NCBI GenBank assembly: GCA_000091205.1
Contig: AP006500.2
DNA: 64,000 bases
Direction: 5' to 3' (one strand)
Source of the DNA: Cyanidioschyzon merolae
Lineage: Eukaryota
Below, piece after piece: positions 2,969-35,507 of the stretch (the first letter of the stretch is position 1; the number at the start of each line of letters is the position of its first letter). Both the position numbers and the translations under genes were made by a program. A model generated the notes under the pieces. That model was not told the DNA's origin. It did not search any database and saw nothing but the letters and a program-made list of their open reading frames with translations.

Positions 2969-5032
2969 ATGGCGGAAGAGCCGGCGACTCCAGCAGACAC
3001 CGAGCTGCGGGACTCGCAAGGCGCTGACACTAGCCGGGAAGGGTCCTGGAGCCCCCACGAGTACCTCATTGAGCAGCCGCTGCACGTAAAGCAGCACCAA
3101 GGCGACGAGGCATCAGTTGCGGCCGACAGCGCACTGCCAACTGCCGAGACGGCTATGTGCACTGCACCAGCGCTGATGGAATACGAGGGTGATCGTCAGA
3201 GCAAAAGGGCTCGCGCCTCGGAGCTGGACTGGTCACCAGCGCTACCTCAAGGCAAAGATGAAGCATCAGCAACTGCTCACAAGACAAATAGTGAACATCT
3301 CGGGTCAGAGAGCCCCGACGATGTTGAGAAATCGAGTACGCCAGGTCATACGGACACAGAACTGGACAGGAATAGCACGTTAGTGTCGAACGCGGATCAC
3401 GCACGAGAACCCCTGGAGCGACGCCCTGGTGGTGACTATGACGAGCGCGACGCTTGTGCGACTACAGCTATGACAACGGGCGCTGCACCCCAAGACCCCG
3501 GGGACGAATGCAACGGCGACAGCGACGCTGCATCCACTGTCGACACAGAGCTCCTATTCGAGACACCGCTCGCCATCCTGAAAAAGTTCCTGGATGGCCA
3601 CTGGGTAGATGCCGGTCGCGGTCCAGTGCGCATTCTACGCCTACGCAGGTGCAGCGAGTCATCGGGCAACACAGAGACGTTTCTGCGCATGGACAGCGGC
3701 CTGCGCCCAGTGCTTTACCTCAGACTGGAGCACGAAACGGCACGTACTGCGCGATGGGAAAAAGTTCGCGAACGAAGTATCCGGTTTCTGTGTCCAGTCA
3801 GCGGGCAGGGCCCAGTGATGTGTGTGTTGCAGTTGCGCAATGCAGCGACTGCAGACAAGCTGCTGGCCCTGATCGAGCAGGTGGCGTTTGCTGCGGCCAA
3901 CAAGGCGCCAGTGGCATCGTATACTGAGCGTTCAACTGGCGTTCAGTACTCGAGTAGCTTTACTGAGCTGTGGACTAGATTCCAGGCAGACACAGTACCT
4001 GTTTTGGAGCAGCATCGAGAAAAAGCGCTCGACGATGACGAGACGGCTACTGCTCCTCGGGTTGTGCGCTTGGAGCAGCTCATCGATGCCTCACGCAAGA
4101 CGCTCGAGCTGCAGGACGCAGCGCAAGAGCGTCTCCTTCAGCTCCTAGAGGAAGCACGCGAGACTTGCACCCGGACAGAGCGCGAGCTCCAGACTGTGCA
4201 CCAGCGTCTGTGCCGGCGCATCGCAGCCGTGGAGCCGCAGCTCTCCAAGCTGAGGTCTAGTCTGGGACCCGTCGACTCGCCCGCACCGCTGACATCGGAT
4301 CCTGCGAAAGCGCTTTCCAACAATGACCTGATGATCACGTCGGTAGAGAGGCGTGCAGTGGAGGCATCCGCGTATGCAGATCCTGCCGACTTTCTTGGTT
4401 TCTGCGCGCGCTTATGCTCGTTTCGACCAAGCTGCTTCAAGCAGATGCGCTTAGAAGAGAAAGGGGCACAGGGCACGGGATATCCGCTTGTTATTGAGCT
4501 CGCACTTGGCGGATGGACGTATCTCTTGTCTGGGGCGTTGCACTGTGGGCGCTGCGGGGCCACATCAGCTGTCAGTGAACTCGTGAACGAGTCGGAATCC
4601 AGTGCACAGGGATGCAGACACCAGCCTGGGTGTCGCTGGCTCAGCGAGCGCTCTCCGACGACTTTTGCGTCGTTTCGTGCGGACTCGTCCACAAGTCGGA
4701 CGGAAGCATGCTGGGCACTGCACCTCGCTGACGCAGTCCGCTACTTGCGCGACGCACTGGAACGCTCCGCGTCTCCAAATGCCTCTGTTACTGAGCGTGT
4801 TGCATTTCGCAAGCTAGCCAGTCATGGTTGGGTATGCCAAACGCGGCAGGAGCGACTGCTTTTTTCCTGTATGTTCTGCGGGACACCGCGTTTCATGGCT
4901 CAGAGCGAGATCGAGCGTAGCCTCGACTCGACCGCAGCCGCAGGTCACCATCGCAGGTACTGTGCGTTCGCGGATACCACTGTTGCTGTCGATATCGAGC
5001 AGCAGCTACGAAATGGAACATCTGCAGCCTGA
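2969..5032 (+). CDS. hypothetical protein (687 aa): acidic/Ser-rich N-terminus, central coiled coil, C-terminal Cys-pair segment
   Basis: Long uninterrupted ORF in GC-rich coding-like composition. The C-terminal region has paired CxxC motifs (HCGRCG ... SCMFCG) that suggest a zinc-binding module. No confident family assignment. Confidence 0.4.
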   Translation: MAEEPATPADTELRDSQGADTSREGSWSPHEYLIEQPLHVKQHQGDEASVAADSALPTAETAMCTAPALMEYEGDRQSKRARASELDWSPALPQGKDEASATAHKTNSEHLGSESPDDVEKSSTPGHTDTELDRNSTLVSNADHAREPLERRPGGDYDERDACATTAMTTGAAPQDPGDECNGDSDAASTVDTELLFETPLAILKKFLDGHWVDAGRGPVRILRLRRCSESSGNTETFLRMDSGLRPVLYLRLEHETARTARWEKVRERSIRFLCPVSGQGPVMCVLQLRNAATADKLLALIEQVAFAAANKAPVASYTERSTGVQYSSSFTELWTRFQADTVPVLEQHREKALDDDETATAPRVVRLEQLIDASRKTLELQDAAQERLLQLLEEARETCTRTERELQTVHQRLCRRIAAVEPQLSKLRSSLGPVDSPAPLTSDPAKALSNNDLMITSVERRAVEASAYADPADFLGFCARLCSFRPSCFKQMRLEEKGAQGTGYPLVIELALGGWTYLLSGALHCGRCGATSAVSELVNESESSAQGCRHQPGCRWLSERSPTTFASFRADSSTSRTEACWALHLADAVRYLRDALERSASPNASVTERVAFRKLASHGWVCQTRQERLLFSCMFCGTPRFMAQSEIERSLDSTAAAGHHRRYCAFADTTVAVDIEQQLRNGTSAA

Positions 5033-6257
5033 CGCGTATCGTATGGATTGCGTAGAGCTCATTCGAACATGCATGGATACTTCGCAGGCAGTGCTCAGTG
5101 CTCTCTTGGATGGAGAGCAGGTCCCAAACGAGCGCACGTACCTGCCAGCGACGTCTAGACTGGAGCACCCGACAAGCAGCCGCACCAGATCACTTTTTGA
5201 CATCAAGGCAGCTGGCTGCGTACCATTCGCTGGCCTGTAAACAAGCATGGATGTAGCGTTGCAGAAACATCGACGATACGCAGCACCTCTCTGAAGTTTT
5301 ATGGATACCGACGCAAGCTGCTTCCTGGCGATGGCGAATGCAGGTGCCTCATGGACAAGCGTTTGATGCAGCGACAGACGCCACGGCAAGCGCGTCTACG
5401 CGGTATGCTAGGCCTCTGCTTGCATCGTTGAATGCGGGGAATGACGCTGAAACTGCGAGAGACTGGCACTTTCCATGGCCCAGTGTTCGCCTGTCGAGCG
5501 CGTGTCTTACAAGGCCCGGAGCAACCCCAGTTGAATTCGTGAGCAGAGTCAGTGCGGGGCAAGACTAGTAGACTCGATCGAGTGGGTACGTGACGGGAAG
5601 CTGGACGGCATATTGCGCAGGTGCGATAGCGTAGAAGTGGAGTCACACCATGGTGGTGCTCTGATAACCTGGTGTACCAAGATGGACAAGGGCACTGGGT
5701 TTGCGCTCTGGCTGAACAGTTGCACCTGATGTCGACACTGCGTTATGGGTACGCTGCAGTCGACTCTGGATTCAATACGTTATTCACCAAGTTTCGTTAA
5801 CATGTTGACCAGAGGAAGCAACATAGCGTCGCCTATCCGGATCAATCGACGATTGGTACCTCATTGCGCTTCAAGCGGCATACAAGCACGCAGGCGCTTT
5901 CTTAAACGTCGCCGCCGTCACCAGCGCAACCTGTTCCACGTCACGATACTTTGACAGACTCTGAGCACCCTTCCAGTCCAAGCGCTTCCCCGTAGACAGT
6001 GTAGTAGCAGTAGCGGCACTGGTATCGTCGCTGCCTGTCCTAAGCACTGGATACCGCTGCTCCTGCTTCTAGAATACCCAGGCAATGCTGCCTTCGCCGC
6101 TGACAACCCTCACCAATCGATAAGCAACTCGACGCAGCGGGCGCCTTGCAAGCCGTTCTGCGTACGGCTCCCGTCAAGGTTCCGTAGACGTTCGTGATAG
6201 GAGCTACAACGCTGACGTTACTTGTCTGCTGCACCAATGCCTGTCTGACGGTTACCA

Positions 6258-8075
6258 ATGTTCATAACAGCACACTGTTTTCGTCATTGTATACAGGGCG
6301 TCGGCTCAACGAGCTGGCACACCAGGGACTGCCCTCGGGGACGATCGAAAAGGTGCCGCCCGGTGTGCGCTTCCCGAGCACTCCCAGCGCTACGTGCCAC
6401 GCAGGATCGTACAGAGACTGCTGCGAAACTGACAGTGGCGAGTAATGGTGATGCTCCAGTTTACTGCTACATCACCAGCTCACCGTTCAAGAACGATTAC
6501 CTGGAGCGCGTCCTTAACGCCCGCGTTTACGAAGCGGCCGTTGAGACACCGCTTGACAACGCTCCGCTGCTGTCGCGTCGCCTTGGTCGACGAGTCCTGC
6601 TCAAACGCGAGGATCTCCAGCCAGTTTTCAGTTTCAAGATCCGTGGCGCCTACAATATGATCGCACTCACAGACATGAGCCAGTACGAAGGCGGAGTCGT
6701 TGCAGCCTCCGCTGGTAACCACGCGCAGGGCGTTGCACTGAGTGCGCAGCTGCTCGGGTTGCGTGCCACCATCGTGATGCCTTGCACCACACCGTCGATC
6801 AAAGTGAATGCGGTTCATCAACGAGGCGCTGAAGCCGTGCTCCACGGCGACACGTTCGATGACGCACAGGCACATGCACTGGCGCTGGCAGCGGAGCGTG
6901 GGGCGCTTTTCGTGCCCCCGTTCGACCATCCCGATATCATTGCGGGTCAGGGAACGATCGCTCTGGAGATACTTCGCAAGCATCCTGGACCCATTGAGGC
7001 AATTTTTGTGCCAGTTGGTGGGGGCGGTCTCATCGCTGGCATTGCTGTGGTTGTGAAGCGCCTTCGTCCCGAGATACGGATTATCGGTGTCGAGCCGTTC
7101 GATGCCGATGCCATGTACCAGAGCCTGCAGGCTAGTCAACGGGTCCGTTTGGCGCAGGTCGGGGTATTCGCTGATGGGGTTGCAGTGAAAGAGGTCGGCA
7201 CCGAGACGTTTCGCCTGTGTCGAGACCTCGTCGATGAGGTCATCCGCGTCGAGAACGACGAAATCTGCGCAGCCATTAAGGACATGTTCGAGGACACACG
7301 CTCGATCCTGGAGCCGGCTGGGGCACTCGCTATTGCCGGCTTGAAGCGCTACGCGCAGCGGAACATGGACACTAGCACTAGCACTAGTAGTAGCAGTAGC
7401 AGCAATAGCAATAGCAGTAGCAGTGGTACCCTCATTGCCATTGCGAGCGGTGCGAACACCAACTTCGATCGACTTCGACACGTCAGTGAGCGAGCAGAGA
7501 TCGGCGAGCACCGTGAGGCGGTACTAGCGGTTCGTATCCCGGAACGGCCGGGTGCCTTTCGGGCGATGATGAACGCACTCGGGCCGGGTGCCAATATCAC
7601 CGAGTTCAACTACCGCTACGCATCACCGGAAGTTGCGCATGTGTTTGTGGGACTCTCGGTCTCGGATCGACGCGGTGCTGCAGCAGCAATATCAAAGCTT
7701 GCCGCCCAAGGTTTTGCGGCTACAGATCTCACCGACAATGAGATGGCGAAGTTGCACTTGCGCCACTGCGTTGGGGGCATGGGTGGACCACATTTCGCCC
7801 CAGCGCACGAGATTGTCTACCGCTTTGAGTTCCCGGAGCGCCCAGGGGCGCTAGCACGATTCCTGAATGGTCTTCGTGGCTGGAATATTACCCTGTTTCA
7901 TTATCGGAATCACGGTAGCGATGTTGGTCGGGTGCTTGTCGGCTTGCAGGTGCCGCCATTGGAGCGTTCCACCTTCTTAGAGTTTGTGGAGCGCCTTGGC
8001 TACGCGTACGTGGACGAGACCCAGAATATCGCCTACCGGATGTTTCTGCGTCCGTTACCGAAGAACGAATCTTGA
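6258..8075 (+). CDS. ILV1: biosynthetic threonine dehydratase (threonine deaminase), PLP-dependent, with tandem C-terminal ACT-like regulatory domains
   Basis: PLP-lysine motif FSFKIRGAYNMI, the glycine-rich loop VPVGGGGLIAGIA, and two repeated C-terminal regulatory-domain segments (..FRAMMNALG..NITEFNYRY.. and ..LARFLNGL..NITLFHYRNHG..). Ends with TGA at 8073-8075. The N-terminal ~60 aa may be a targeting peptide, or the true start may be downstream. Confidence 0.9.
   Translation: MFITAHCFRHCIQGVGSTSWHTRDCPRGRSKRCRPVCASRALPALRATQDRTETAAKLTVASNGDAPVYCYITSSPFKNDYLERVLNARVYEAAVETPLDNAPLLSRRLGRRVLLKREDLQPVFSFKIRGAYNMIALTDMSQYEGGVVAASAGNHAQGVALSAQLLGLRATIVMPCTTPSIKVNAVHQRGAEAVLHGDTFDDAQAHALALAAERGALFVPPFDHPDIIAGQGTIALEILRKHPGPIEAIFVPVGGGGLIAGIAVVVKRLRPEIRIIGVEPFDADAMYQSLQASQRVRLAQVGVFADGVAVKEVGTETFRLCRDLVDEVIRVENDEICAAIKDMFEDTRSILEPAGALAIAGLKRYAQRNMDTSTSTSSSSSSNSNSSSSGTLIAIASGANTNFDRLRHVSERAEIGEHREAVLAVRIPERPGAFRAMMNALGPGANITEFNYRYASPEVAHVFVGLSVSDRRGAAAAISKLAAQGFAATDLTDNEMAKLHLRHCVGGMGGPHFAPAHEIVYRFEFPERPGALARFLNGLRGWNITLFHYRNHGSDVGRVLVGLQVPPLERSTFLEFVERLGYAYVDETQNIAYRMFLRPLPKNES
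7368..7428. repeat. imperfect (AGY)n trinucleotide microsatellite, in-frame in ILV1, encoding a Ser/Asn/Thr tract
   Basis: Sequence agcactagcactagtagtagcagtagcagcaatagcaatagcagtagcagtggt encodes TSTSTSSSSSSNSNSSSSG, between the catalytic domain and the regulatory domains. Confidence 0.8.
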
Positions 8076-17378: not shown

Positions 17379-18407
17379 TCACTGGGGCCTGACAGTCGCT
17401 CGTGGCGACTCAACAGCGCATCGGTTCACTGTGGCGGGGCCACCGTCGCTTCGCAGCGCGACCTGCACTTGCCGGTAGGCTTCCCAGAGGGCAATGGCGG
17501 CGCTGGTCGATAGATTGTACGATCTGATACCGGCATCACCGGGACACACCATTGGAATCGCAATCGTCCGCTCCCGAGGAATATCCTCGGGCGGAATGCG
17601 TTCGAAACCATCTAGCTCGTTCCCAAATATTAGCGTGATCTTCGTTGCAAGAACCTCACTTCCTTTCTTTGATGAGACAAGGTCCGCGTCCAGCAACGAG
17701 CTCTGTGCGAACTTGGTGAAGTAAAAAACGTTACCCAACTGGGGCAAACCCTCGTCGCGAAAGGCCTGCCAACTCGACCATACACGCAGATCAACGAAAG
17801 GCCAATAGTCAAGGCCAGCCCGTTTCAGGTGGCGATCACTCAGAGAAAAACCCAGCGGTTCAATGATATGAAGCCGTGCTTGAAAACCTACTGTAGTTCT
17901 GGCGGTATTCCCGGTATTCCAGTGAATAGAGGGTGCGTAGAAAACAACGTTCAGTAGGGGCTCGCCTGTGCCCGTGTGACGCAGTGGCGCGCTCACAACG
18001 CCTGGGCCATAGCTCGCGCGTACGCACTTGCTTCTCGAGATGCACTGTCGAGATGCTCTACTGACGCCTGCGAAACAGGGCAGTTCTGGTGACCACTCGG
18101 TAACAAAAACGAACTCGAGTGCGCGCATAAGCGCCTGGCGTCGGTACCAGGTTCCTGTGTCCATACAGAGCGCGCAATATGAGGAATACTGGGGTGTTCG
18201 CCCTGCGGCGAGTGCATTTCTTTGTGGTTCTTTGAGAGCACGTTTCCTCGAACAGGGAATCGTCATCATTGCTGACTTGATACCAGCAATGGGAGAGCGT
18301 GCATGTATCCACGCCTTTCCTCCAACTTCTGAGACCCATATTCCCCGTCGCAGGTAGTGGTCATTTCGTGCGTTCCGCAGTGCGCCGAGTCTGCCATGAG
18401 CGTCCAC
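17379..18407 (-). CDS. SPOUT-class RNA 2'-O-methyltransferase of the bacterial TrmL (YibK) type, with a ~130 aa N-terminal extension
   Basis: TrmL-like block LNVVFYAPSIHWNTGNTARTT...RLHIIEPLGFSLSDRHLKRAGLDYWPFVDLRVW, then the C-terminal SPOUT knot motifs LIFGNELDGF and IAIPMV..IRSYNLSTSAAIALWE. The true start is probably an internal ATG (e.g. MDTGTW.. near 18164). The extension may be an organellar targeting peptide. Confidence 0.8.
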   Translation of the reverse strand: MDAHGRLGALRNARNDHYLRRGIWVSEVGGKAWIHARSPIAGIKSAMMTIPCSRKRALKEPQRNALAAGRTPQYSSYCALCMDTGTWYRRQALMRALEFVFVTEWSPELPCFAGVSRASRQCISRSKCVRASYGPGVVSAPLRHTGTGEPLLNVVFYAPSIHWNTGNTARTTVGFQARLHIIEPLGFSLSDRHLKRAGLDYWPFVDLRVWSSWQAFRDEGLPQLGNVFYFTKFAQSSLLDADLVSSKKGSEVLATKITLIFGNELDGFERIPPEDIPRERTIAIPMVCPGDAGIRSYNLSTSAAIALWEAYRQVQVALRSDGGPATVNRCAVESPRATVRPQ

Positions 18408-22792: not shown

Positions 22793-25294
22793 CGAGACCG
22801 GAACGATTGCGTTTGCTCAACACAGACTCGGCATCAGCTCGTTAAAAGTGCGACCATATTCATGTGTGTCACATGTTTCCGAACGACCAGATTTGCGATG
22901 CCTAGTCGCCTGCAGGTGTCCCGATGCCCCCAGTGAACGACACACGACTGATACTGAGGCGACAAGAAGCATGTGTTGCTGCGTCTGACATTCGCGTAGC
23001 GGTGGCTGCGGCTCAAGGCTTGTCCAGAAAGCGCTCGAGCGTCAAAGCGTCTGCAATTTTGGTGCAGGTTGATCGCGTGTAAACTCTGCACAGGCACGGA
23101 GTTGGTCAACGATAACGTGTTTCCGGACACAGTTCTCGGCGCTTTTTCGGTGCACGGTAACGGTGCGTTCTGCTTGTATGCGAGCTGCAACGCCCCGAGA
23201 AGCGTAGGGCGTAGCACTCAGTGTTTCTAGGATTGAAAATGGTACGGTTCTGGAAACACGTTGTACCTGCCGGTGGGCTTGTAAACGGAGTGCGATGGCC
23301 TGATTGGTAGCCCTGCACCAGAGCATACGCTGTGTGTCGGTTGTTGGCACGGGCCGAAGCCGAACCCAGCACCTGCACTTTTATCGTCGTTACCGTCGCT
23401 CATGCATCACTGGAGATCAGATGGCTATGATGCGTGTAAGCACAGCAATGCCGCTTTTCGACAAGTCGTTCTCTGCGCTCACCAGTCCTGGACTGCTGTG
23501 TAGCATCTCTGCTCATACGTAGGCTGGAGCGTAAAATCCGCGCGCTAGTCCATAGGCGTGCTCGTGACGGTAGTAACGAAAATGAACCTATGGCATACCA
23601 GGTACATAGAAAGAAAAGGCGGGTTTCGGTTCCAAAGCCAAGGAGAAGGCGAAGAATCCCGAAGGCGACGATTAGCAGACGGATCTTCTCGAAAAGAAAC
23701 CCCCGAGAGGCATGAAGGAAAAACTGTCGGGGCGGATGGATCAGTCTAAGACCGCTGCCATGGCATTCTTCATGGGAACATATCAAAGGATAGACCCTTT
23801 TAAAAAGTGAGGCACAGGGCGTTATCACGGATCATGTTGCTCCAAATTTGAACGAGACACGTCTGGCTTTTCTCGCCTTGAAGAACCTCGTTAAACAACT
23901 GCCTGTAGGAGTTGCGGACACAGGGTTCCCAGCTGTCGTCATTCATCGGGAAGCCCTGGGTCAAAACTCGATGGGACTAGTGCTTTACAGGACAGGAGCT
24001 GCAACACGGCCTGATCGTGGGTCCCAGGTTTTGCACACACGCTTCGCAGCATACCTCGACGCATCGCTATGCCATATCGGTCATCGGGACACCTAGAGCG
24101 CATGTGCCAAAGGGCATCGACATAAGCTCCCGGAGCGTATGGGTGTCGATGTCCAGCGTCTCATGAAGCGCACCCTGTGGGCGTCGTCGAAGTCTCTCCC
24201 TAATGGACCAGAAAACCGGGACTCAAGGAACCGATTCTACGCTTCGTGGAGTTTACAAGCGTCCAAGTGGCTCATGCGGACGATCTGTGACTAGGCTGCA
24301 TGAGACTGCACTAGGCCCGCGAACGATTTCATTTACACGAAAGCAATGAGCGTGTACACACCGAGCTATTGAATGAGGTGGCAAATGGAATGACCGCCAA
24401 GTCGCCTTATTTTGTGGCCGCCCATCGCGCTCGACGTATGGCAGCGAGCATGGGCTACACGCCCGCTTTTTGGCGATTGCGTACAATGAGTCCAGGAAAC
24501 GATTCTGCGCGATTTCCGAGGACACCTTCAGGACGGCATAGAGGCATCACGAGCACGGGTGCTTGCTGAAACTGCCAACGGAGAAGCGCGTAGAACAGAG
24601 ACGGATGCACGGGATAGTGTGCGGTACGCTGAGCGAATGCCAAATGGCGAGGCAACCGGAGATGAGCGGCGTCGCCTGGGTCGGATTCCACCGGTAACCC
24701 TGCGGGCAGGCAGTCTCTGCATCGAGACTTGAGCGTCACCGTCAACATTCGACAATGTCTCGCGTATCCGGAGCGTCCAGCGGATTTGTGTAGAGCGACC
24801 TTTCAAAGGAGTCGTTTCGTATTCAGCACGGGTATTTCGCTGAACCGCTGAAGACTCTGGATGAAAAAATACATGCAGTCAGGGTAGAACGCGTAGTCCA
24901 TGCTCGACTGGATCAACGCATTGGTATGGTGTGGTTCAGGGATCGGGCAAGGTCGGAACACCAGACGTGCAATCAACGGAAATGCTTTTCCTGTTCATTG
25001 ATAAACGATTTCAATGTTGCATTTTCCGATCATATACCGGACACCTGTCAACCGACACCCAGGCTCTGGGATACAGCGATTTCGCCATCGCGACGGGGAA
25101 GCGTGCTTCGGCTCGCTTCTCAAGCGCCGTACGCTGGACCCAGACTTGGATTCGAGTCTGAGAATCCGTCCCCGAAGTGAACAAGCGCCCTGGTTCCATT
25201 TCAAGCTAGCGTATGGGTAAAAATTCGCGTTTTACATCGATGCGGCCCGTCACACCCATTCACATACGAGTCGGCGTGAACGCGGCGATCCGAG

Positions 25295-27844
25295 TCAAAC
25301 GGATGCTTGGTTATCTGTCTCGTCCCAGAGCGGTACACGCAACACCGGCTCTATCAAAACAACCCAGGGCTGTAGCCCCGACTGCTCTTTGATGATATCG
25401 CTGGCAGGCCGCTCCGCTCGCAGATCATCACCCCAGGATGCAACCAGCAGCACATCGATCCACACAAAAGGCATGGTGAGCACATATCGAAGCGACTGGG
25501 AGAACGCCTCCACTCGCTCTGGTTCAGCCGTTGACCAGCTCATGTTCGTCCCAGTGCAGAGCGTTGTCAGATCCTCGTCAAGTACCCAAGCCGAAATCAC
25601 CGTCGGCGCAGAAGCGATTATTTTCCGATTTTCGAAACGCAGGTCGTCATTTAGAAACGGCTGATTTTCCACCGCTTCTTTCGATCCACTCGGGCACTGG
25701 AATGGCAGATCTGTCAAAAGCAGCTGCAGCATGTGCCGCGAGTCAGCGTCAACGATCCAGTGCACGTCGCAGACGCAGGCGTACACGCGGTAGAGCCGAT
25801 GCATTGGAGTGTCGGCGCGCGCGCACGCATTACCCGCTGCACGCATCGAGCGCAGTGCACGCATGTCATCCAACATATGCGCAAGCGACTGAGGGCGTAG
25901 CGCTTGCCAGGGTATGCTCATCGTTGAACTTGTCTGTAGCAGCGGTGGACCACTACAATGCAGGCAGCTGGGGTGCTGTACAGGACCCCGTTTGACAATT
26001 CCTGTCTCTGCGGACTCGATATTAGTCGTTGTATGGGAGGTGGTGGTGTAGGCAACGCGTTCGCGATTCAGTTCGGTGCACGGGGCGCTGAGTATGGGAT
26101 AGGCAGCAGCGCTCATTTGTTCCGGTGTATTTCGGGTGCCAAGCGCACGCTGGTGAGCAACGGGCGCTGCTTCGTATGCGCTTTGCGAATCGGTCCGACA
26201 CGTGGGATCAGTCAATGCTGCTCCCAAGTGCTGCATGCGACTTTGCACCTCGGGCATCCATTGCGGGAACTTGTAAATCGATGAACCCTCATTCATGGTC
26301 AGGCGCAAAGGCAGACCCGGGCGTCGATCGAGGCGTACATCGCGAAGCCGGAACCAGTTACCGCGAAGGTGCGGCTCCAGTCGATGTGTGAGCCGCGTCC
26401 AGCACTCTGCGGCAATGGAGACCGTCACCAAATCGGAGATGCTTCCGTCGGTGACTTTGAGCAGGAATTCGTACGGGGTTTTCTCCAAGTCCCGAATGAG
26501 CACCACCAGATCGTATCGTAGCCGTTGCATGGCGCTGCCGTTTGCTGAGTCGACCACAAGCGAACTTTGCAGAATGTCTCGCAGGGTGGCGGAGAACGCC
26601 TTCGAGCCGAGAAAGCCGCTTTGCGACAGGAGTGCACGCGCCCAACGTAGCAACTCCATGGCGTAACATTTTTCACTATTGGTGATCACGATCGATTTCG
26701 TGTTTGACGGGTAAGCATATATGAGCGGATCGGGTAAATGATTCATTTCTTCGAGATGAGTGGCGGTCGCGGCTCGCAGACCGGACAAGTCTCCGGAAGC
26801 GGAAGCCGACGAGCGTCCCAAACCAGCTCCCTCATCATGCTGAGCAAGTGCAGGCCAGAGGCACATAGAAGAGAGCGAATTTGTCTTCAGCTCCAACGTC
26901 TCCGTCTTCGAACCACTCGGACTCTGTTGGGGAAACCACCGCAGCTCGGCGCGATGTACCCGGACGACGTCTCCTACCCCGATGTACGGAACGCAATCGC
27001 TAAGACGGCTACTGAACGAGGTAAGCATGAATTGGGGAGGTGCGAAGCTCACCAGCCGCCCATCAGAGTCTGTTACGACGATGCTTGGATCGATGATCTG
27101 CAGCTCAGTGAGCAGTTCTCCGGTACGTACCAGGCGAGGCGCCCGGACGTCGACGATCACCCCGTAAACGTCATACGTGCGACCGGACATCTGGCCGGGG
27201 TGTCGCAACTGCTCAAGCGTTAAGTAGTGATGTTTTGAGTCCAGGGGCACTACAGGCCTCGGAACTGGTTCGCAACTTTCGTGCTGTGCGACGGGGCGTC
27301 CACTGGTGTCCGTCCCTGCACCATGCTCTGTGACGACCAGAGTTTGCCCTATAGACTCCGGAGACAGCTTCATGATACGTGCGTTTGCAAGTTGGGATAG
27401 ATCGTTGCACTTGCCGGCGTCTTTGAATATGGTGAGCGCGGGTTTGCAGGCTGTTGCGTCTGCGGCACCAGCACAGCAGGCCTCTCGCTGGTCAGGACCC
27501 AGTACCACCGCGTACTCGTGTAGTTCCAGACACGAGTCCAACAGTCCATGGTCCCTGGCCTCACAAATGTCGCCCAGCGGTACGACCTGTGCGTTCTGAA
27601 CCTCCACAACGTCCCAGTGTGCTAGGGCGGTGCCCGCGGCCGTCCAGTCGCCGGTGCAAACAAGCACAACCACGGTCTGCTGTGGAGCAGGAACACTCGG
27701 CCAGGGCTCAAGTAAAGCAAGGATCGCTCTACCTGAACGATTTTCAACTAATGTTCGAAGGACTCGCCCTCGTAGACGAAATGGATGCTCAGCGTTGCAG
27801 GTGTAGGGCTTGAGGCTCCGAAACTGCACGAGACGCAGTTCCAT
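25295..27844 (-). CDS. hypothetical protein (~850 aa). Possible OB-fold-like segments; function unknown.
   Basis: Long uninterrupted minus-strand frame 25295-27979. The track start at 27979 overlaps the 3' end of the Fanzor-like frame, so the downstream ATG at ~27844 (MELRLVQF) is preferred. Segments such as TYDVYGVIVDVRAP..TGELLTELQIIDPS resemble ssDNA-binding OB folds, but only weakly. Confidence 0.4.
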   Translation of the reverse strand: MELRLVQFRSLKPYTCNAEHPFRLRGRVLRTLVENRSGRAILALLEPWPSVPAPQQTVVVLVCTGDWTAAGTALAHWDVVEVQNAQVVPLGDICEARDHGLLDSCLELHEYAVVLGPDQREACCAGAADATACKPALTIFKDAGKCNDLSQLANARIMKLSPESIGQTLVVTEHGAGTDTSGRPVAQHESCEPVPRPVVPLDSKHHYLTLEQLRHPGQMSGRTYDVYGVIVDVRAPRLVRTGELLTELQIIDPSIVVTDSDGRLVSFAPPQFMLTSFSSRLSDCVPYIGVGDVVRVHRAELRWFPQQSPSGSKTETLELKTNSLSSMCLWPALAQHDEGAGLGRSSASASGDLSGLRAATATHLEEMNHLPDPLIYAYPSNTKSIVITNSEKCYAMELLRWARALLSQSGFLGSKAFSATLRDILQSSLVVDSANGSAMQRLRYDLVVLIRDLEKTPYEFLLKVTDGSISDLVTVSIAAECWTRLTHRLEPHLRGNWFRLRDVRLDRRPGLPLRLTMNEGSSIYKFPQWMPEVQSRMQHLGAALTDPTCRTDSQSAYEAAPVAHQRALGTRNTPEQMSAAAYPILSAPCTELNRERVAYTTTSHTTTNIESAETGIVKRGPVQHPSCLHCSGPPLLQTSSTMSIPWQALRPQSLAHMLDDMRALRSMRAAGNACARADTPMHRLYRVYACVCDVHWIVDADSRHMLQLLLTDLPFQCPSGSKEAVENQPFLNDDLRFENRKIIASAPTVISAWVLDEDLTTLCTGTNMSWSTAEPERVEAFSQSLRYVLTMPFVWIDVLLVASWGDDLRAERPASDIIKEQSGLQPWVVLIEPVLRVPLWDETDNQASV

Positions 27845-27920
27845 AGATTCCGTCGCACCAACAACGCCGTTCGAAAGTCGAACGACGCCAACGGTGTACA
27901 GTAGTGGCGGGAAAACCGTC

Positions 27921-30423
27921 TTAGAGAAGATGTCTCCAACTGACGTGCAGACACCTCCCCGCCTTTTTGGACCGGCCACCCACTACTGCTTCCAACTTTT
28001 TCTCATCTAGTTCGACTTTGATAGGTTGTCCAATAAAGTTCTCTCTTGTCAGCTCTGGAGGTCTCGTCTCCAGGACCGCACATCTCCGTACATTGATAGC
28101 GGCATTAAAGTCTCGGTTCACAAACTCCATACGTTTCTTCCCGTTGCGAGTTGTACTCACTATTGCGAGTAGCCCTCGAACTTTCGCCCTCCTTTCCATT
28201 TGCTCCTCCGTCAGCGGTCCGTACTTTGCTATTTCCTCAGGGCTCCTCTGGCACTTTTCTATCTCCACGCTCTGAAGTGTACAACCCAGTTCGTGGTATA
28301 TATACGATGTTCGGAACTCATCTACAGGTATCGTAACAAAACGCCTTGCGCACTGTTTGTGCACCCTCGTCGTTGGAGCTGGAGTAGTGCCTTTCTTGGG
28401 CGCCCAGCGCCCTGCCCCATACGCTACTACGAGCCTTTGACTTTCATCCTCCTTCAAGGCGCTCAACTGATTGAAAAAGTTGGCAAACGCCCGCTGCTTC
28501 CCACCGTATAGATTCATTCGCAAACGAGCCCACCGGGGCTTCGTATACTCCTCCCACAGCGCATCCCAATGCGCCATGCGAACTTCCATGAATTTCCGAA
28601 AAGCTTCAAATTTCGCGCTTCGGCTAGTCACCTTGCTCAAAGCTTCCAGGTGATCCTTCATCCCTGAATTCCAAGTCTCGATTTTCTTCCTTGCATTCAT
28701 GATTCCCGATTCTCGATAGTATCTCGCTCTCGAGAACGTCAAGAGACGCATGTCTTTCTGACGTAAGTTGCCGTCAGTACAATCTTCCGCCCGCTTCGGT
28801 GCTGCGATGGTGATGATATTTGAGTTTCCGGTGTCCGCGCCAACGACAAAGTCGTTATCTTGCACTTTCTGCTTCTCAGAACCGGGCTTCTTGTTTTCTT
28901 CATGGTTCGTCGCGTCAACGACAAAGTCGTTATCCTGCACCTCCTGCACCAGAGGATCCGCTTCCTTCCCATCTTCATCCTTCGTCACGTCAACGACAAG
29001 GTCGTTATCCTCCACCTCCTGCATCGCAGGTTCTGCCTCCTTCTCATCTTCATCGTTCGTCACGTCAACGACAAAGTCGTTCTCTTGCACCTCCTGTGTC
29101 GCAGGATCCGCCTCCTTCTCATATTCATCCTTCGCCACGTCAACGACAAACTCGTTATCCTCCACCTCCTGCATCACAGGATCCTCCTCTTTGTTTTCTC
29201 CATCCTTCGCGACGAGCGCAGCCGAGGGCGGAACTGGCCGACCTTCCTTCAACCGCCGATAGTGTACACACAAGGGTACTCCATCGGTTTCGATCAACCC
29301 AGTAAATACCTTTTTTTGCTGACTTTTAGACGTTTGAAATCGAAGATACTCTTCCAGTACGTCTCCCGGTGTTCGCCGGAGAACTCCTCCCTGCTAACAT
29401 CGAACTCCGGACAGATCTCCCTCATGATGCCGTAAAGGACGCCGGAGTCGATAGTTACAAAATGTGACTTGACTTTCCACATTGGAACCACGTTGAAGCG
29501 CTTCCCCATTAGGAAATTCTTCCGTCTCTCCCACTGTTCATTTGTCTCTTCACTCAGCTTCACCTCCGCTTTGCGTGCGAGCTCTCGGTCCAAAAACACG
29601 AAATAGCGCAGGATGAGGCGGTAGTATCTTTCCTTATCTTTTTTCAACGGTGATATCTTGTCTGTTGGATTCACCAACCCAGTGCCGCACGGTGCTCTTG
29701 TATAGCCGCACGGATCACAGAAGCTTCATTCGTGCTCCTGCGTGATGTCTTCATATCGACAAATTCGATCTCATCTTCATACTTTCGATCGTTCGTGATG
29801 CCGTTGATCATCGCCCATATTCCTTTGCGAGAGATGCCCGGGTAGAGTGCAAACACGGCGCGTTTCATGAAACGTTCGAGGTTCTCTGTCAAATGCTTCT
29901 TCAGGTTCGTAATGTACTTCATTACCCCGTATGTGTAAATATTTCCGTCACCCTTGTATCGGGTACGCTCGAAGCGGTATTCGGCGTAGTTTTCGTGGAG
30001 AGCGTGCACTAGCACATTTTCCTTCCGCGCTTCCCCTGTACCAAGCATCAGGTGACGAATAAAGGTCTTGTGGAAAAACTCGTCTGGAATCTCGACCGTT
30101 TCCATGTGCGTCACGTCGCGATACATCTCCCTCGCCAAATGCATCAGCCCTGAAGACGCCTTGACAATACTCTTGGAGTGCGAGTCGACACGTTTTTCGA
30201 TAGCGTCTCGCAACTTTTCCCTGTAGGGATCCTTGATATGTCCAAGAAGGAAGGCTTTCACCACCATCTCGTCGTACAGTCGTCTTTCTTGCCGCCTTCG
30301 ACGTAGGGCGTCCACCTTTCGATTCTCCTTCACTTCCTTTTCTTCTGGACTCGGCACTGTATTTGTTTTTTTTCTGGCAGCCGGCGACACTGGGCCTCCA
30401 GGATCGTGGACTTGCTTTTTCAT
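27921..30423 (-). pseudogene. TnpB/Fanzor-like RNA-guided RuvC endonuclease homolog (OrfB_IS605 family). The frame of about 835 codons is split into three ORF-track segments (30423-29671, 29677-29294, 29297-27921) by two +1 frame changes.
   Basis: Middle segment: RuvC-I-like ..[16 protein letters not shown].. (Asp codon ~29436-29438). 3' segment: TnpB-type ..RRFVTIPVDEFRTSYIYHELGC.. (the 'VDP.YTSQ.C' block) and RuvC-III ..EFVNRDFNAAINVRR.. (Asp codon ~28110-28112). The CxxC zinc ribbon is mostly missing, and the canonical RuvC-II Glu position reads ..RLVVAYGAGRW.. (substituted). The middle and 3' segments begin with TTG in the ORF track, and their frames stay open upstream and overlap. One junction coincides with the A7/T7 run at 29311-29317. 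Confidence 0.7.
28847..29192 (-). repeat. five tandem 75-bp repeats encoding an acidic 25-aa unit (consensus ~QEVxDNDFVVDVTxDEDxKEADPxx) inside the Fanzor-like frame
   Basis: The period is visible directly in the DNA (gtcaacgacaaagtcgttatcctgcacctcctgc... recurring every 75 nt) and in the translation (PVMQEVEDNEFVVDVAKDEYEKEADPATQEVQENDFVVDVTNDEDEKEAEPAMQEVEDNDLVVDVTKDEDGKEADPLVQEVQDNDFVVDATN...). It sits between the RuvC-I and RuvC-II regions. Confidence 0.85.
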
Positions 30424-30780
30424 AGCTTTCCTTTTTTAGTTTTTTTGAGAAAGAACGCTCTTTGAACCCTTCTGTTATATACTGCGAAAAATTAATCGAA
30501 TATTTTTACTTGAGGTTTGAAGCACAATCGAACTGAAAGACTGTACGTTGCTATGACCTGAACGAAAATACAACGTTTACAATAGATCTACATGCTAGAG
30601 ATCAGGATCACGTTCCCCTTCAAAAACGGCATGTGCGTCGTGTCTCATGCCTGCCTGATCTCCGAGGTGCGCTCACTGAGCGCGATGCAAACTAGTCACA
30701 AACTATTTATCAAAGAACAACTATCTTTAAGCCCAACACACCACGCCCGCATAAGAGGTCTAGTTTTTCCGGAGAAGCTC
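30424..30780. promoter_or_regulatory. AT-rich (~35-40% GC) spacer directly upstream of the Fanzor-like frame start; putative promoter or element end
   Basis: Sharp drop in GC (tttttttagtttttttgagaaagaacgc...ttatatactgcgaaaaattaatcgaatatttttacttg) compared with ~60% in the flanks. It lies between divergently oriented mobile-element reading frames. Confidence 0.3.
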
Positions 30781-31289
30781 TGAAAGTGGGCGAACGCGGG
30801 GTGCTTGGGCGACGGCGAAGGAAGCCCACGACAGGGACGTTGACCGCAACGAACAGAGGGGCGCAGACAGTGGCAGCAGAAAATATTGACGAGGGTTCTG
30901 AGCAGTCATCCGCTGCTCTCGAAACAACGCTGCAGGCTCCGGCGCAAATCCTGGATTCATTCTTGAACTCGGGCTCAGGATTACCTCCTACATTGGTTTC
31001 TACCTCAACTCTGGAAACAGTCTCGGCGGATACTTTGGAAGACGGCTGGCAGTATGTTCGCGGTCGAAGCTGGAATAAGCGACTTATCCGCCTATGTGTT
31101 TGGGGAGCGGATACGAAGCCGCTGAAAGGGTAGTTCGTAGAGTATCCGCTGTGGTTGCGGGTAGCTTCACGCGTCCGGCAAGATAAAGGTCGCATTCGAA
31201 TCGACCTTGACTAATGTACTTCTGATTTTACGCTAGCACTGCGGCAAGCACTCAGTGAACGACTGGAATGCAGGAGGCAATGGTGGCGT

Positions 31290-34200
31290 GTGCGTTCTCA
31301 CACCCTGGGGAGGGTGCATCTAAATCGACGACGTATCTCTGGAGTACCGCAGCGTTACTCCTATTCCCTTATGCGCTACGACTCGATAGGTTTCGCATCA
31401 TGGAATATTTGTGGGATAGCCTCGATACTAGACGACGAGATATCGAATTACCAGTACAGTAATGAAGAACTGATACAAGTCGTTGACTGTACAATGGGTA
31501 AAGAGACCCAACCAGATACGGAGAAGGAGACACAGAAACCTCATGATCCACCTAGATGCAAAATATCCAGAGAAAGCAGCTCAGGAAAGAGCCCGAAGAA
31601 GAAGAAGACCAGCAAGAAAAAATAGATGAATAGAAAGAAGAACTCCCAAACGAGCCCATCACAAGTCATCCCCCGAAAGGGCACCCCAGCGGGATCTCAA
31701 GAAAGCTGTCACCAAACCCAGGCACCTGCTCACAGCGCTGAAGATCCGAAAAGCCGTGAATACAAATCTTCAGACCAATTGGCACGCGAGTTTGTAGATG
31801 GGAATCAGAAGATTGCCAGAGAACTGGGACTGCTTGCACCTGAACACAACAGTAGCAAGCCGCAGTACCTCAAACGACGTACCAAAACTCGGATTGATGA
31901 ATGCCACCGACTCCATAAGATCGTCAACCGCACCGCCATACGCGCCAACGCCGGAGACAAGGAAGCGAAAGCAGCGCTACCGGCGCTACAGGCGCAACAT
32001 GAAGAAGCTATCAAAAGAAAGAAGAAACTTTCCAGAGAAGACAAACGAGAGGATCGAAACCGCAAAATGGCCTCCCTGACGGAATTTATGCTCGAGAGCA
32101 CCAACGAAGATGAGACCTAGCGCTCCATTCGATCGAGACTGGACCCACCAAAAAAGTGCTTGGGGCTCACACCAATCGTTTATGAGGAAGCGCTGAGGAC
32201 GGAGCGTGCCTCAGGGAATGAGGCCTGGATAAACCACGGGATAGAGCTGCATGAAGACGCAACTGGGCACTGCCGAAACCGAAACTATTGGCAACAGTAT
32301 GCATCAGAACTACTACGCCTCGACCCGGTACCGGAATGGAACGACCCAATCTTCTGGACTGAATCTGTTCGGACCCTGCTATGCTCAAGCAACCGCAAAA
32401 CACCTGGCTTTAACGGTATCCCTGCGGAGTGGATGAGACTGGCGATTCCAAAAGACGGGACAACAGGGACACCATCGATACCAGATGAACCTGACACAAT
32501 CTTAGGCAAACGCCTTGTGGAGCTCATCCAACGCATGTTCGAAGAGGCGTACATCCCGGATGTATGGAGGACTGCCGAGGTCGTACCGATCCTCAAAAAG
32601 GACTCCCACACAGACATGAACAACTACTGGACTATGCGCCTCATCCCGTCAATCATGAAGCTACTTTGCGCCATCCTCACGAACCGGATCCAGACGCGCT
32701 TCGAGGAGCGCAAGTTCTTCGCCTCAGAACAGGCTGGATTCCGGAGCCGCAAGGAGTGCATGAGCCATGTCCTGACCCTCATTGGAGTGGCGCAACGTCG
32801 CTTCATTAGCGACCAACAACCAACTTACGTATGCTTCGTCGACTTTCAAAAGGCTTGTGACACGTTCCCGCATGAGGCTCCATTTCTGAAGATGGGACGA
32901 TCCGAAGTCTCCGGAAAGTGCTTGGCGTTCTTCCGTGCGCTCTATGCAGACTCATGGATGCGCATCCGACTGGGCGACAGCTCAAGAACCCCTTGTATAC
33001 GAATCCACCGTGGACTGCGACAGGGCGACCGCGCATCCCCGCTCCTTTTCAACATCTTCATCAACGATCTGCTTAACAACTGCAGACAATACGGGCTTGA
33101 GGTGCCGTGGATAGACTGTGGAGATGCCCGATGAGGAGCGCCCATTTGGGAACCGCCTCGCAGGCCGTTTAGTTGCGGACGATGCCGTGCTGTTGGCAAA
33201 CGCCCCGGAAACGCTTGCTGCTAGCATGGAACAAGTCAGCGCCTGGGCCGATCGCTGGGGTATGAGCATAGGAGCATCGAAGTGCGGCGTCATGCTCATC
33301 CATGGAGACTCGCAGAGCATTCGCAATCGCTCGTGGCGGTTGCAGAATCAGGAAATTCCGATCGTGGAAACATATCGCTACCTGGAGGGTCTGTCGCACG
33401 CCGACGCTCGACGAAAAGGCACACGTTAACGAGATGATCGCCAAGATGCATAGACGTACAGCGATCGCACGCCCATTCCCATCCGACCCCTCTATCCGCT
33501 TAGCAATCCGTACGAGGGCACTAAGGATGTGTATCATCCAGCCTGCGACCTGGGGTACTGAATGGTGCGGCATGAAGCACGCAAATGCCTCGCGTCTGCA
33601 GACAGCCGCCAACAGGGCAATGCGACTCGTTGTTGTTGTTGGATGCTCAATGCAGAGCAGAGCAACCAACCCGTTGACACTCGGACTTGAACTCCAAATA
33701 CCCTCGATAGAAGCGATAGCAGCAGGTTGCCGGGTACGTATATGGGCCAAAGGGCCCGCCATGCGCACCTCTTTGAGTCGGAGTTTCATGCAGACCCCAA
33801 CGCACCGCAAGAAAACTTGGATGAAATCGACGCAGATTTGGCAGAAGCGCCTCTTGGGCGAAAACACGCTCCCCAATCGTTCCCCAGAAATATAGAATTC
33901 TCCCGTCGCCTGAAGCGAACGGTCCAAACGCCAATATGGGAAGGTAGACATGGTACCAGTCGCGCTAGTAACGCCGGCTTGACTCTATATCGGAACTACA
34001 ACCTAGCATACACATGCAAGTACTGGTGGGAGGCGCTGGAATTCCCGGGACTTGCTCGCGGTACCCTGTGGCTTGCCAAAATCCGTGTTAGTGGCATCTG
34101 GCTACCAGCACCGGCTCTAAGCCGTACGGGAACACTGGAACCGCACTGGGAGTCACACTGTCCCTGCTATCGAGAAGAGACCCCTCGAGACGCTGACATA

Positions 34201-34900
34201 TTTGGGCTTACAGTGCCCGCGCTCGAAGCAGGAGCGCAGCGAGCTCCTTGGAGGACACCAGCAGCTGGGCATCACCGTGATAGTCGAAGGCCGGACACTC
34301 ACTCTGAGTATAGCACCGGCAACTGATGGTCCGATAACCGAGCCTCAGCGCTCATCAGTGGCGAACAAACTCACATGCTACCTTCTAGGCATGAGGTCCA
34401 GCGTATCGGATGCGCACACGGGTTTAGTGCACTTTCTGCGCCTACCCACTGTGGTGGGTGTCAAGCACAAACCCGCATTGCCAACCTACAACACATTCAA
34501 TGCATGATCACGAAGGAGAGAGGCGGCTCCCAGGATTCAACCTAACAGCCAAGTTTCTACAGCGTGTATTGCGGCGAAGGCAAGCCTGCATTTGCAGACT
34601 ATCCGAGCACAAACTGACGACGAGACCCGATTCTACGTCGGGTGAACCACACCTCGAGCCGACGCCCTTTGTGGTATAGAAAAGCTGTTCTAGCTCTATG
34701 AGCTATCTGCTCCAGCGTTCAAGTGCAAAGGCGAATACGGAACGGCAGGTACTAGGCACACACGATAGGACGTATGAAACGACCAGAATATCCGAGACGA
34801 AGTATAGCTAATGTAACATGGGAGTAGGGGGTTGATGAATACCTCACCTCGCACTGAAAAAACAAACACACAATAAAAGTAGGAAAAGAAGAATGCGCAT
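31290..34900 (+). mobile_element. degenerate non-LTR (LINE-type) retrotransposon copy. One long frame holds a basic N-terminal region and a reverse transcriptase. Two in-frame TAG codons and frameshifts inactivate it. A-rich 3' tail region.
   Basis: Frame 0 is continuous from 31290 to 33134 except for TAG at 31623-31625 and TAG at 32118-32120. The RT motifs are listed under the next feature. Later parts shift to other frames (33118-33429, 33302-33895, 33727-34326). An A-rich stretch ctgaaaaaacaaacacacaataaaagtaggaaaagaag lies near 34850-34900. No APE endonuclease domain was recognised. Confidence 0.75.
32160..33429 (+). pseudogene. LINE reverse-transcriptase domain (frameshifted near 33118-33134)
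   Basis: RT motifs 0-7 are listed below with a VADD variant of YADD. The 32160 start is a TTG artefact of the ORF track. Confidence 0.8.
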
Positions 34901-35357
34901 GATCGGAGAACGCTGGCCTAAGTAAACGTTTTGTCCATGAAAACAATCGTAGCTTCAGCAACGGTGAAACCGGGGCTCGGCGTTCCGCGGGGCATGCTCC
35001 ACTGACTTGTCGAATATGCACGAAAATTGTCGAATTCATTGCTGATGACGCTGCTACTGTGTTGCAGTAGTACGCAGTGGACCTGTCTTCTGCGAGTCTC
35101 GAGAACATTTTGCACTCGAACGGAAACCTGTACGTTCGGACGCTTAGACCATTCGCGTCAGAGGATGCTTTTCAAAATGCATTCTTATCGGGAAAACTCG
35201 AACGTCTCCGCGCAATACCCAGCCATATTACCGGCACTAGCGTGGCCGATTGGCCCCCTTCGACGCCGCTGGCTACAGAGCACTAGTAACCGAGACGCTC
35301 TGGGCATCTCGCAAGCATCGCGTTGCCAATCGCATGGATAAGCTCTGGAATGCCAGC

Positions 35358-35507
35358 GGATACAATCGATCATTCGCTATTTGCTCCGTGTCAACGATGA
35401 GACACACCCAGCAATCGTATGCACCGAGTTTCGGATACAATCGATCATTCGCTATTTGCTCCGTGTCAACGATGAGACACACCCAGCAATCGTATGCACC
35501 GAGGTTC
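35358..35507. repeat. near-perfect tandem duplication, two copies of 75 bp
   Basis: Unit ggatacaatcgatcattcgctatttgctccgtgtcaacgatgagacacacccagcaatcgtatgcaccgag occurs at 35358 and again at 35433 with a single-base difference at the unit end. The small ORFs on both strands that translate as GYNRSFAICSVSTMRHTQQSYAP x2 are probably spurious. Confidence 0.9.

Follow-up and report, generated by a model that had tools for sequence, protein, structure and literature searches.

The mobile element CMe-1A of the red alga Cyanidioschyzon merolae was described as a family of ~150 copies, ~80% identical to a consensus of ~3 kb, that have no terminal inverted repeats (TIRs) and encode only a Fanzor1 protein (Bao & Jurka 2013, Mob DNA 4:12, PMC3627910). 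Structures have been solved for three other Fanzor1 proteins, SpuFz1, PpFz1 and GtFz1 (8gkh, 9ceu-9cf3; Saito 2023, Xu 2024), in which the loop joining the WED and RuvC domains is variable in length, and it is this loop that, by its N-terminal part, contacts DNA at the place where the DNA is unwound (PMC11423790). In this paper, we focus on a single copy of CMe-1A on the minus strand of a 64,000-nucleotide stretch of C. merolae DNA (contig AP006500.2 of assembly GCA_000091205.1; "the window" hereafter means that whole stretch) and, within that copy, on a single feature: a 75-bp tandem array that adds four acidic 25-residue units to the nuclease just ahead of its catalytic core. How did these units get there, and do they do anything for the protein that carries them? 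Neither the text nor the supplement of the original CMe-1A description mentions a repeat array or its variability (PMC3627910), and our literature searches for Fanzor together with tandem repeats found no report of one. As both the element and its nuclease were already described in 2013, our main result is a correction and a clean-up, in which the array and its variability are new as far as we have searched.

By sequence and predicted fold, the gene in question is assigned to the known Fanzor1 element CMe-1A, of which it is a dead copy. Its parts are these:

27921..30423, minus strand: Fanzor1 (CMe-1A) pseudogene in three frames, 30423..29671, 29677..29294 and 29297..27921
29678..29681 (at ~29681/29680), minus strand: frameshift 1, loss of one nucleotide from a run of G (GGG in the window for the GGGG of paralogues)
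29311..29317, minus strand: frameshift 2, a 1-nt deletion that makes an A7 run (AGCAAGAAGAAGG in an intact paralogue, AGCAAAAAAAGG in the window)

The two deletions divide the open reading frame (ORF) into three, as might be expected of the decaying copy that the initial annotation, a reading of the window's letters alone, had suspected, and a full-length protein can be had from the window only after two frame corrections. Introns were considered as the source of the three frames and rejected, because the paralogues continue in one frame across both sites, where the window has lost single bases relative to them; a sequencing error at the A7 run was likewise rejected, because an independent assembly of the locus (L001) carries the identical deletion. 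Reconstructed in this way, the protein has 833 residues and aligns from end to end with the 734-residue published CMe-1 Fanzor1 consensus, with 593 of 733 aligned residues identical (81%); the sole large gap in the alignment is 100 residues long, exactly four units. The organism is the same, and the size of the family, the ends without inverted repeats, the single Fanzor1 ORF and the lack of a transposase all fit the published description. The window copy departs from that description in three respects: it has four extra units (100 aa) where the published consensus has one unit, it is twice frameshifted, and its 5' region is rearranged beside sequence that bears a reverse transcriptase (RT). 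An exact look-up of the 250-aa product of the N-terminal ORF gave no record.

The Fanzor1 assignment is supported by the catalytic residues of the gene product and by its predicted fold. The window copy retains D530 (GADTG), E702 (VDEFRTS) and D771 (NRDFNAAINV), and these three are nearly invariant in a 110-sequence family alignment (GxDPG, DEFRTS and RDxNAAxNI). Although the solved Fanzor1 proteins share this D-E-D triad and the same predicted fold, they are only ~13-14% identical to the window protein, and the 458-aa window ORF alone gave no match to PDB sequences with phmmer; only the family profile reached Fanzor1 (PpFz1, 9cf0, E=5.7e-17; SpuFz1, 8gkh, E=1.6e-10), with matches that span WED, RuvC-I, RuvC-II and RuvC-III. 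An AlphaFold2 (AF2) model of the reconstructed protein (predicted template-modelling score, pTM, 0.78; 490 of 833 residues with a predicted local distance difference test score, pLDDT, of at least 90) returned Fanzor1 for all of its top 7 Foldseek matches in the PDB (E 2e-15 to 5e-13), the next match being Cas12o at E=6.6e-3, and its target-normalised TM score with SpuFz1 is 0.68. A copy of Pfam that does not include DUF8286 (PF26935) recognised no family in the separate ORFs of the gene or in the reconstructed protein, which also failed to match the TNB zinc ribbon (CxxC...CxxC, PF07282); the best PF07282 match, on paralogue P0001 at E=0.23, scored 12 bits where 26.3 are required, and few distant relatives carry PF07282. 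The corresponding region of the window copy (28150..28330, minus strand; residues ~700-760) reads HELGCTLQSVEIEKCQRS...RGLLAIVSTT, without the four-cysteine pattern, and, unlike the solved Fanzor1 proteins, the CMe-1 family at large is missing most of these cysteines. The family is possibly a zinc-less TNB variant, in which the TNB fold may persist without zinc. Beyond it lies a large and diverse Fanzor1-like family (homologues P0041-P0159; 270 hits of 600-700 aa, Pfam DUF8286/PF26935), with representatives in numerous assemblies from ENA, Logan and JGI; a single member has been mis-named "ribosomal protein L35AE/L33A" by its source.

Within this gene, Tandem Repeats Finder (TRF) reported a sole array, at 28841..29209, with a 75-bp period, 4.9 copies, 81% matches, 0% indels and a score of 451. 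Self-comparison of 28809..29209 gives an identity of 0.776 at a lag of 75 and 0.741 at a lag of 150, against a mean of 0.272 at other lags; the lag-75 background across the window is 0.263 +/- 0.026, and the best 325-nt stretch outside the array reaches only 0.351. The array shares the strand (minus) and the reading frame of ORF 29297..27921, and its 25-aa units are acidic:

29209-29184, minus strand: partial unit tail, AKDGENKEE, ahead of unit 1
29183-29109, minus strand: array unit 1, DPVMQEVEDNEFVVDVAKDEYEKEA
29108-29034, minus strand: array unit 2, DPATQEVQENDFVVDVTNDEDEKEA
29033-28959, minus strand: array unit 3, EPAMQEVEDNDLVVDVTKDEDGKEA
28958-28884, minus strand: array unit 4, DPLVQEVQDNDFVVDATNHEENKKP
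28883-28809, minus strand: array unit 5, the native terminal unit with RuvC beta-strand 1 and catalytic D530, GSEKQKVQDNDFVVGADTGNSNIIT
28884..29183, minus strand: the four extra acidic 25-aa units together, residues 414-513 of the reconstructed protein, a 100-residue gap against the CMe-1 consensus

Both TRF and the codon register thus agree with the initial annotation that a regular 75-bp array, in frame and encoding acidic units of 25 aa, lies within a TnpB-family (here, Fanzor1) nuclease gene, and the periodicity that it offered for checking by self-comparison is there. Its coordinates, 28847..29192, do fall on the array but stop slightly short at both ends, and its five units are real as 75-bp units but are better counted as four extra ones and a native segment that bears RuvC-I. 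The window units are 80-89% identical among themselves. Glutamate makes up 17.5% and aspartate 13.9% of the extra units (31% Asp+Glu), and with a mean net charge across loci of ~-5.25 per unit, the four of them add a charge of roughly -21. A second tandem repeat that happens to have a period of 75 lies at 35357..35507 (2.0 copies, 98% identical); it is unrelated, has no evident similarity to the array in the nuclease and is intergenic, between a retroelement block and a P-type ATPase gene.

The position of the units within the protein follows from the catalytic residues. The RuvC-I aspartate, D530 (codon 28835..28833), is inside the last unit, and the RuvC-II glutamate, E702 (codon 28319..28317), and RuvC-III aspartate, D771 (codon 28112..28110), follow downstream of it; this puts the four extra units on the N-terminal side of RuvC-I, in the loop that runs from the final WED strand (TDG, residues 379-381) to RuvC strand 1 (E524-530 in the model). 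The initial annotation had placed the array between RuvC-I and RuvC-II, which is wrong, and indeed, the last unit supplies the RuvC-I beta-strand itself. Because one edge of the unit is a beta-strand of the catalytic core, each extra unit holds a non-functional copy of that strand (DNDFVV). From TDG to the catalytic aspartate, the linker is 30-54 aa long in the diverse family, and in the subfamily of the window copy it comes in 25-aa steps of 48, 73, 98, 123, 148 (the window) or 173 aa. In the AF2 model, residues 408-515 have a pLDDT below 50 (~28) and no secondary structure, with both flanks above 90, so that the segment is predicted to be flexible, as had been proposed for it, and no docking of the acidic segment onto the body of the protein is seen in the model. 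By alignment, the DNA-stacking residue of the WED-RuvC loop would fall ~20 residues upstream of the array. For none of the solved Fanzor1 proteins has a tandem-repeat insertion been reported in this loop; the ~100-aa FRI insertion of PpFz1 is different in kind, being a folded, non-repeat domain inside RuvC, at a site other than that of the CMe-1 array.

The number of units is anything but fixed. We surveyed the array with a unit model in 82 related loci, which reduce to ~50 distinct loci when repeated samplings are merged, and this comparison across paralogues, which the initial annotation had suggested, found the array in all 82, in a 75-nt register, with 1-7 units, a small number of which are variants with a length of 72, 74 or 78 nt. 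Three of the ~50 distinct loci have one unit, and 47 have at least two, with a mode of 3-4; most sampled copies hold 3-5 units, and the published consensus, with its one, under-represents the family. Copies with one unit rank among the most divergent, and no repeat is present in a relative of 35% identity, two facts that together point to one unit as the ancestral state. Two pairs of loci are instructive: L020 and L021 have 7 and 3 units, with flanks 99.1-99.2% identical over ~7 kb on each side, and L037 and L046 have 5 and 3 units and are 99.1-99.5% identical, and each pair is clearly one locus in different populations. An in-frame TAG has been duplicated into three units of L020; having been copied with the units, it places the expansion in an already dead copy. 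The independent expansions of L020 and L037 both contain a 72-nt unit variant without one AAG, and near-identical adjacent units are found in L044, L052, L077 and L080. Copies nearer to the family consensus have more units (Spearman rho=-0.32, p=0.026). Younger element copies tend toward longer arrays.

Selection has treated the units and the rest of the protein very differently. Between loci, the ratio of nonsynonymous to synonymous differences per site (pN/pS) is 0.29 in the RuvC core (bootstrap confidence interval 0.27-0.30; 450 nt), 0.54 in the native linker (0.47-0.61; 20 codons just upstream of the array) and 1.10 in the extra units (1.00-1.20); among the units of the window array, it is 1.14-1.16, and in-frame stops are present in 18 of 197 units. 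This contrast indicates that, while the family diversified, purifying selection acted on the nuclease but not on the amino-acid sequence of the extra units; the codon-position pattern that would have spoken for selection on the units gave no sign of it (pN/pS 1.1-1.16). Nor has the wider family conserved the acidity of the loop, and many relatives have basic linkers of 30-54 aa.

What seems to us the probable explanation is that the array is a minisatellite, or variable-number tandem repeat (VNTR), generated by slippage or unequal exchange, neutral in sequence, tolerated in the length-variable and disordered WED-RuvC loop and, in the window, mostly inherited. The ancestral protein would have had a single acidic 25-aa segment ending in the RuvC-I strand (...EADPATQEVQENDFVVGADPG...), and replication slippage or unequal exchange would have duplicated 75 bp of it in head-to-tail order; gain and loss of units preserve the frame, 75 being divisible by 3. 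The extra units, added to a loop of already variable length and predicted disorder, would have been tolerated there, with the real RuvC strand presumably supplied by the last unit only. Multi-unit arrays would have arisen in source elements at a time when purifying selection still acted on the nuclease core, and then spread by transposition, and units would go on being gained and lost after insertion, in dead copies too. The five-unit array of the window would be mostly inherited and stable at its locus. The mechanism of duplication and the absence of function are what we infer from these patterns, and in them, the array is much like the coding minisatellites known from disordered regions of proteins: its units are head to tail and a multiple of 3 in length, they vary between alleles, their composition is of low complexity and charged, and their substitution pattern is neutral. 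It differs in being inside the gene for a transposon-encoded, predicted RNA-guided nuclease.

Several points weigh against this explanation, and they should not be hidden. A pN/pS of ~1 does not exclude selection on charge or length, nor does it exclude a mix of purifying and diversifying selection. An insertion that adds a charge of about -21 to a loop that contacts DNA need not be innocuous (PMC11423790). With 47 of 50 loci multi-unit and a rho of -0.32, successful source elements could have had a reason for long arrays. None of the sampled loci has a fully intact ORF by the crude test that we applied. Finally, unit turnover and possible ectopic conversion blur orthology: the closest paralogue, L003, has a core 92% identical to that of the window copy and also has five units, but the unit-by-unit diagonal between the two is only fuzzy, and the word "inherited" thus rests on nearest-neighbour statistics and not on a clean tree.

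Could the units then be useful? One might imagine that the acidic repeats form a tunable disordered module that auto-inhibits or gates the nuclease by DNA mimicry or repulsion, with a strength set by copy number, next to a loop that packs against the end of the target-adjacent motif (TAM) duplex and initiates the R-loop, and that such a module could have been favoured in source elements for limiting damage to the host. Acidic DNA-mimic or auto-inhibitory segments include the acidic tail of HMGB1 and the DNA-mimic anti-restriction and anti-CRISPR proteins, and the CMe-1 units resemble them in setting strong negative charge beside a nucleic-acid-binding surface; unlike them, the units are without sequence constraint and are predicted to be disordered rather than a rigid array of charges. 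The charge of the units is what such a module would need, they are in the loop whose N-terminal part contacts DNA in solved Fanzor1 (PMC11423790), the multi-unit state is the majority state in elements whose RuvC core was held at a pN/pS of 0.29, and copies nearer to the consensus tend to have more units. However, the sequence of the units is unconstrained, at 1.10 compared with 0.54 for the native linker upstream, arrays grow in copies that are already dead, duplicating their stop codons as they do so, the wider family has not kept the acidity of the loop, and the segment, at a pLDDT of ~28, does not dock in the AF2 model. On this evidence, we consider a gating module unlikely.

A more specific form of this idea, which we find decidedly improbable, is that the WED-RuvC loop of the CMe-1 lineage evolved into a length-tunable, acidic and disordered "brake" beside the point of DNA unwinding and that source elements with longer arrays were the ones that spread. 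If it were true, the number of units would set nuclease activity or R-loop initiation, and even the least that the "brake" would imply is that the site is a naturally validated position at which Fanzor1 tolerates insertions of 25-150 residues.

A recent expansion in the window copy after its inactivation, which the initial annotation had raised, appears very unlikely. It is true that the window copy is a pseudogene and that dead copies elsewhere have grown in situ (L020 and L037, with the near-identical neighbours in L044, L052, L077 and L080 to be added). However, the units of the window are only 80-89% alike, and they have closer relatives at other loci (89-96%): the best identities elsewhere of the four extra units are 0.96, 0.91, 0.93 and 0.89, compared with 0.89, 0.85, 0.89 and 0.80 within the array. 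L001 and L014, which come from two independent metagenome assemblies, have kept the same five units in the same order at the same locus as the 10D window, with flanks that are collinear with the window and gap-free (L001 is 99.4% identical) and 1-2 substitutions in the array, and the closest paralogue is five-unit as well. Such divergences between units argue that the window array is no recent local expansion. They are also not peculiar to the window, as 127 of 146 extra units are nearer to a unit at another locus than to any in their own array (mean identity 0.92 compared with 0.84), from which it follows that multi-unit arrays pre-existed in source elements and were spread by transposition, as the minisatellite explanation has it. 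That the array is an assembly artefact, its units mis-joined or mis-counted, can practically be dismissed: tandem repeats are prone to mis-assembly and this family has >100 copies, but units that are 11-20% divergent can be assembled unambiguously, and the 10D reference and the two independent metagenome assemblies agree on the units, their order and their collinear, gap-free flanks.

If the array is a tolerated minisatellite, it is the tolerance that may be of use. The loop had 50-150 extra residues in lineages whose RuvC core evolved under purifying selection, so that the C-terminal part of the WED-RuvC loop is, judging from these sequences, a probable insertion-tolerant site, which could interest those who engineer Fanzor editors. 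The array is also a ready length marker for typing Cyanidioschyzon strains.

The element around the gene has left a more complicated record, and its parts are the following:

27856..30688, minus strand: element segment common to 71-82 of 82 related loci, with sharp homology breaks at both ends
27856..27990, minus strand: conserved 3' terminal region (conservation across 28 loci), a candidate omega-RNA scaffold or transposon end
27888..27864, minus strand: terminal hairpin with core CGTTCGA-CTT-TCGAACG, then GCGTT and a variable tail
30689..34946, plus strand: sequence directly 5' of the nuclease part, with an RT retroelement fragment and a CMe-1A piece

The common segment contains the nuclease gene only. 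No transposase was found in the element, the upstream ORFs being an RT fragment or without a Pfam match, and its ends have no inverted repeats. Related metagenomes contain at least 350 related stretches, and the median pairwise identity of the core among copies is 84%. The 3' 135 nt have a fold z-score of -2.9, and covariation by RNAalifold is weak (1 of 14 pairs), for which reason an omega-RNA is put forward here only as a candidate.

On the 5' side, RT is encoded by ORFs 32160..33134 and 33118..33429 (plus strand; Pfam RVT_1, E=1.8e-13), and a 203-bp piece of the CMe-1A 5' region lies at 34828..34626 (minus strand); the RT-bearing sequence and the displaced piece together indicate that the 5' region of the window copy has been rearranged or interrupted. 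The junction, ...TAGTTTGTGACTAGTTT|GCATCGCG, is found again, identical, at further distinct loci (the L017 group and L049), so that the composite of retroelement and nuclease seems to have been copied as a unit, and L002 has only the 33675..34946 part at the identical junction. Two pieces of the window, 34626..34828 (minus strand) and 18319..18401 (plus strand), are 77% and 74% identical to the first 630 bp of the CMe-1A consensus (its TE-N2_CMe part). At other loci, a TE-N2_CMe-like 630-bp part is often directly upstream of the nuclease part (inverted in L053 and L055), and many copies have ~200 bp of extra conserved sequence on the 5' side.

The neighbourhood deserves a few words. Seven of the long ORFs in the window match proteins of C. 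merolae 10D exactly, with locus tags from CYME_CMR418C to CMR439C on a 1.25-Mb chromosome. On its 3' side, the element ends (27856) only 11 nt ahead of the likely start codon (ATG, 27844) of a neighbouring POT1-like gene (ORF 25295..27979, weak PF02765), and any guide transcribed from the 3' flank would match the start region of that gene. Two heavily decayed Fanzor-like relics, covering the region from RuvC-II to RuvC-III, are present at ~24480..24810 (plus strand) and ~56340..55860 (minus strand); by tblastn, they are 30-47% identical to CMe-1 or to relatives on the P0041 branch. Finally, 2969..8075 holds a gene for a 687-aa hypothetical protein (CMR418C) and an adjoining threonine dehydratase gene, both of which fall into 90%-identity clusters with genes on another chromosome, namely CMH270C and its neighbouring threonine dehydratase, and this likeness suggests that a segment has been duplicated between two chromosomes of C. 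merolae.

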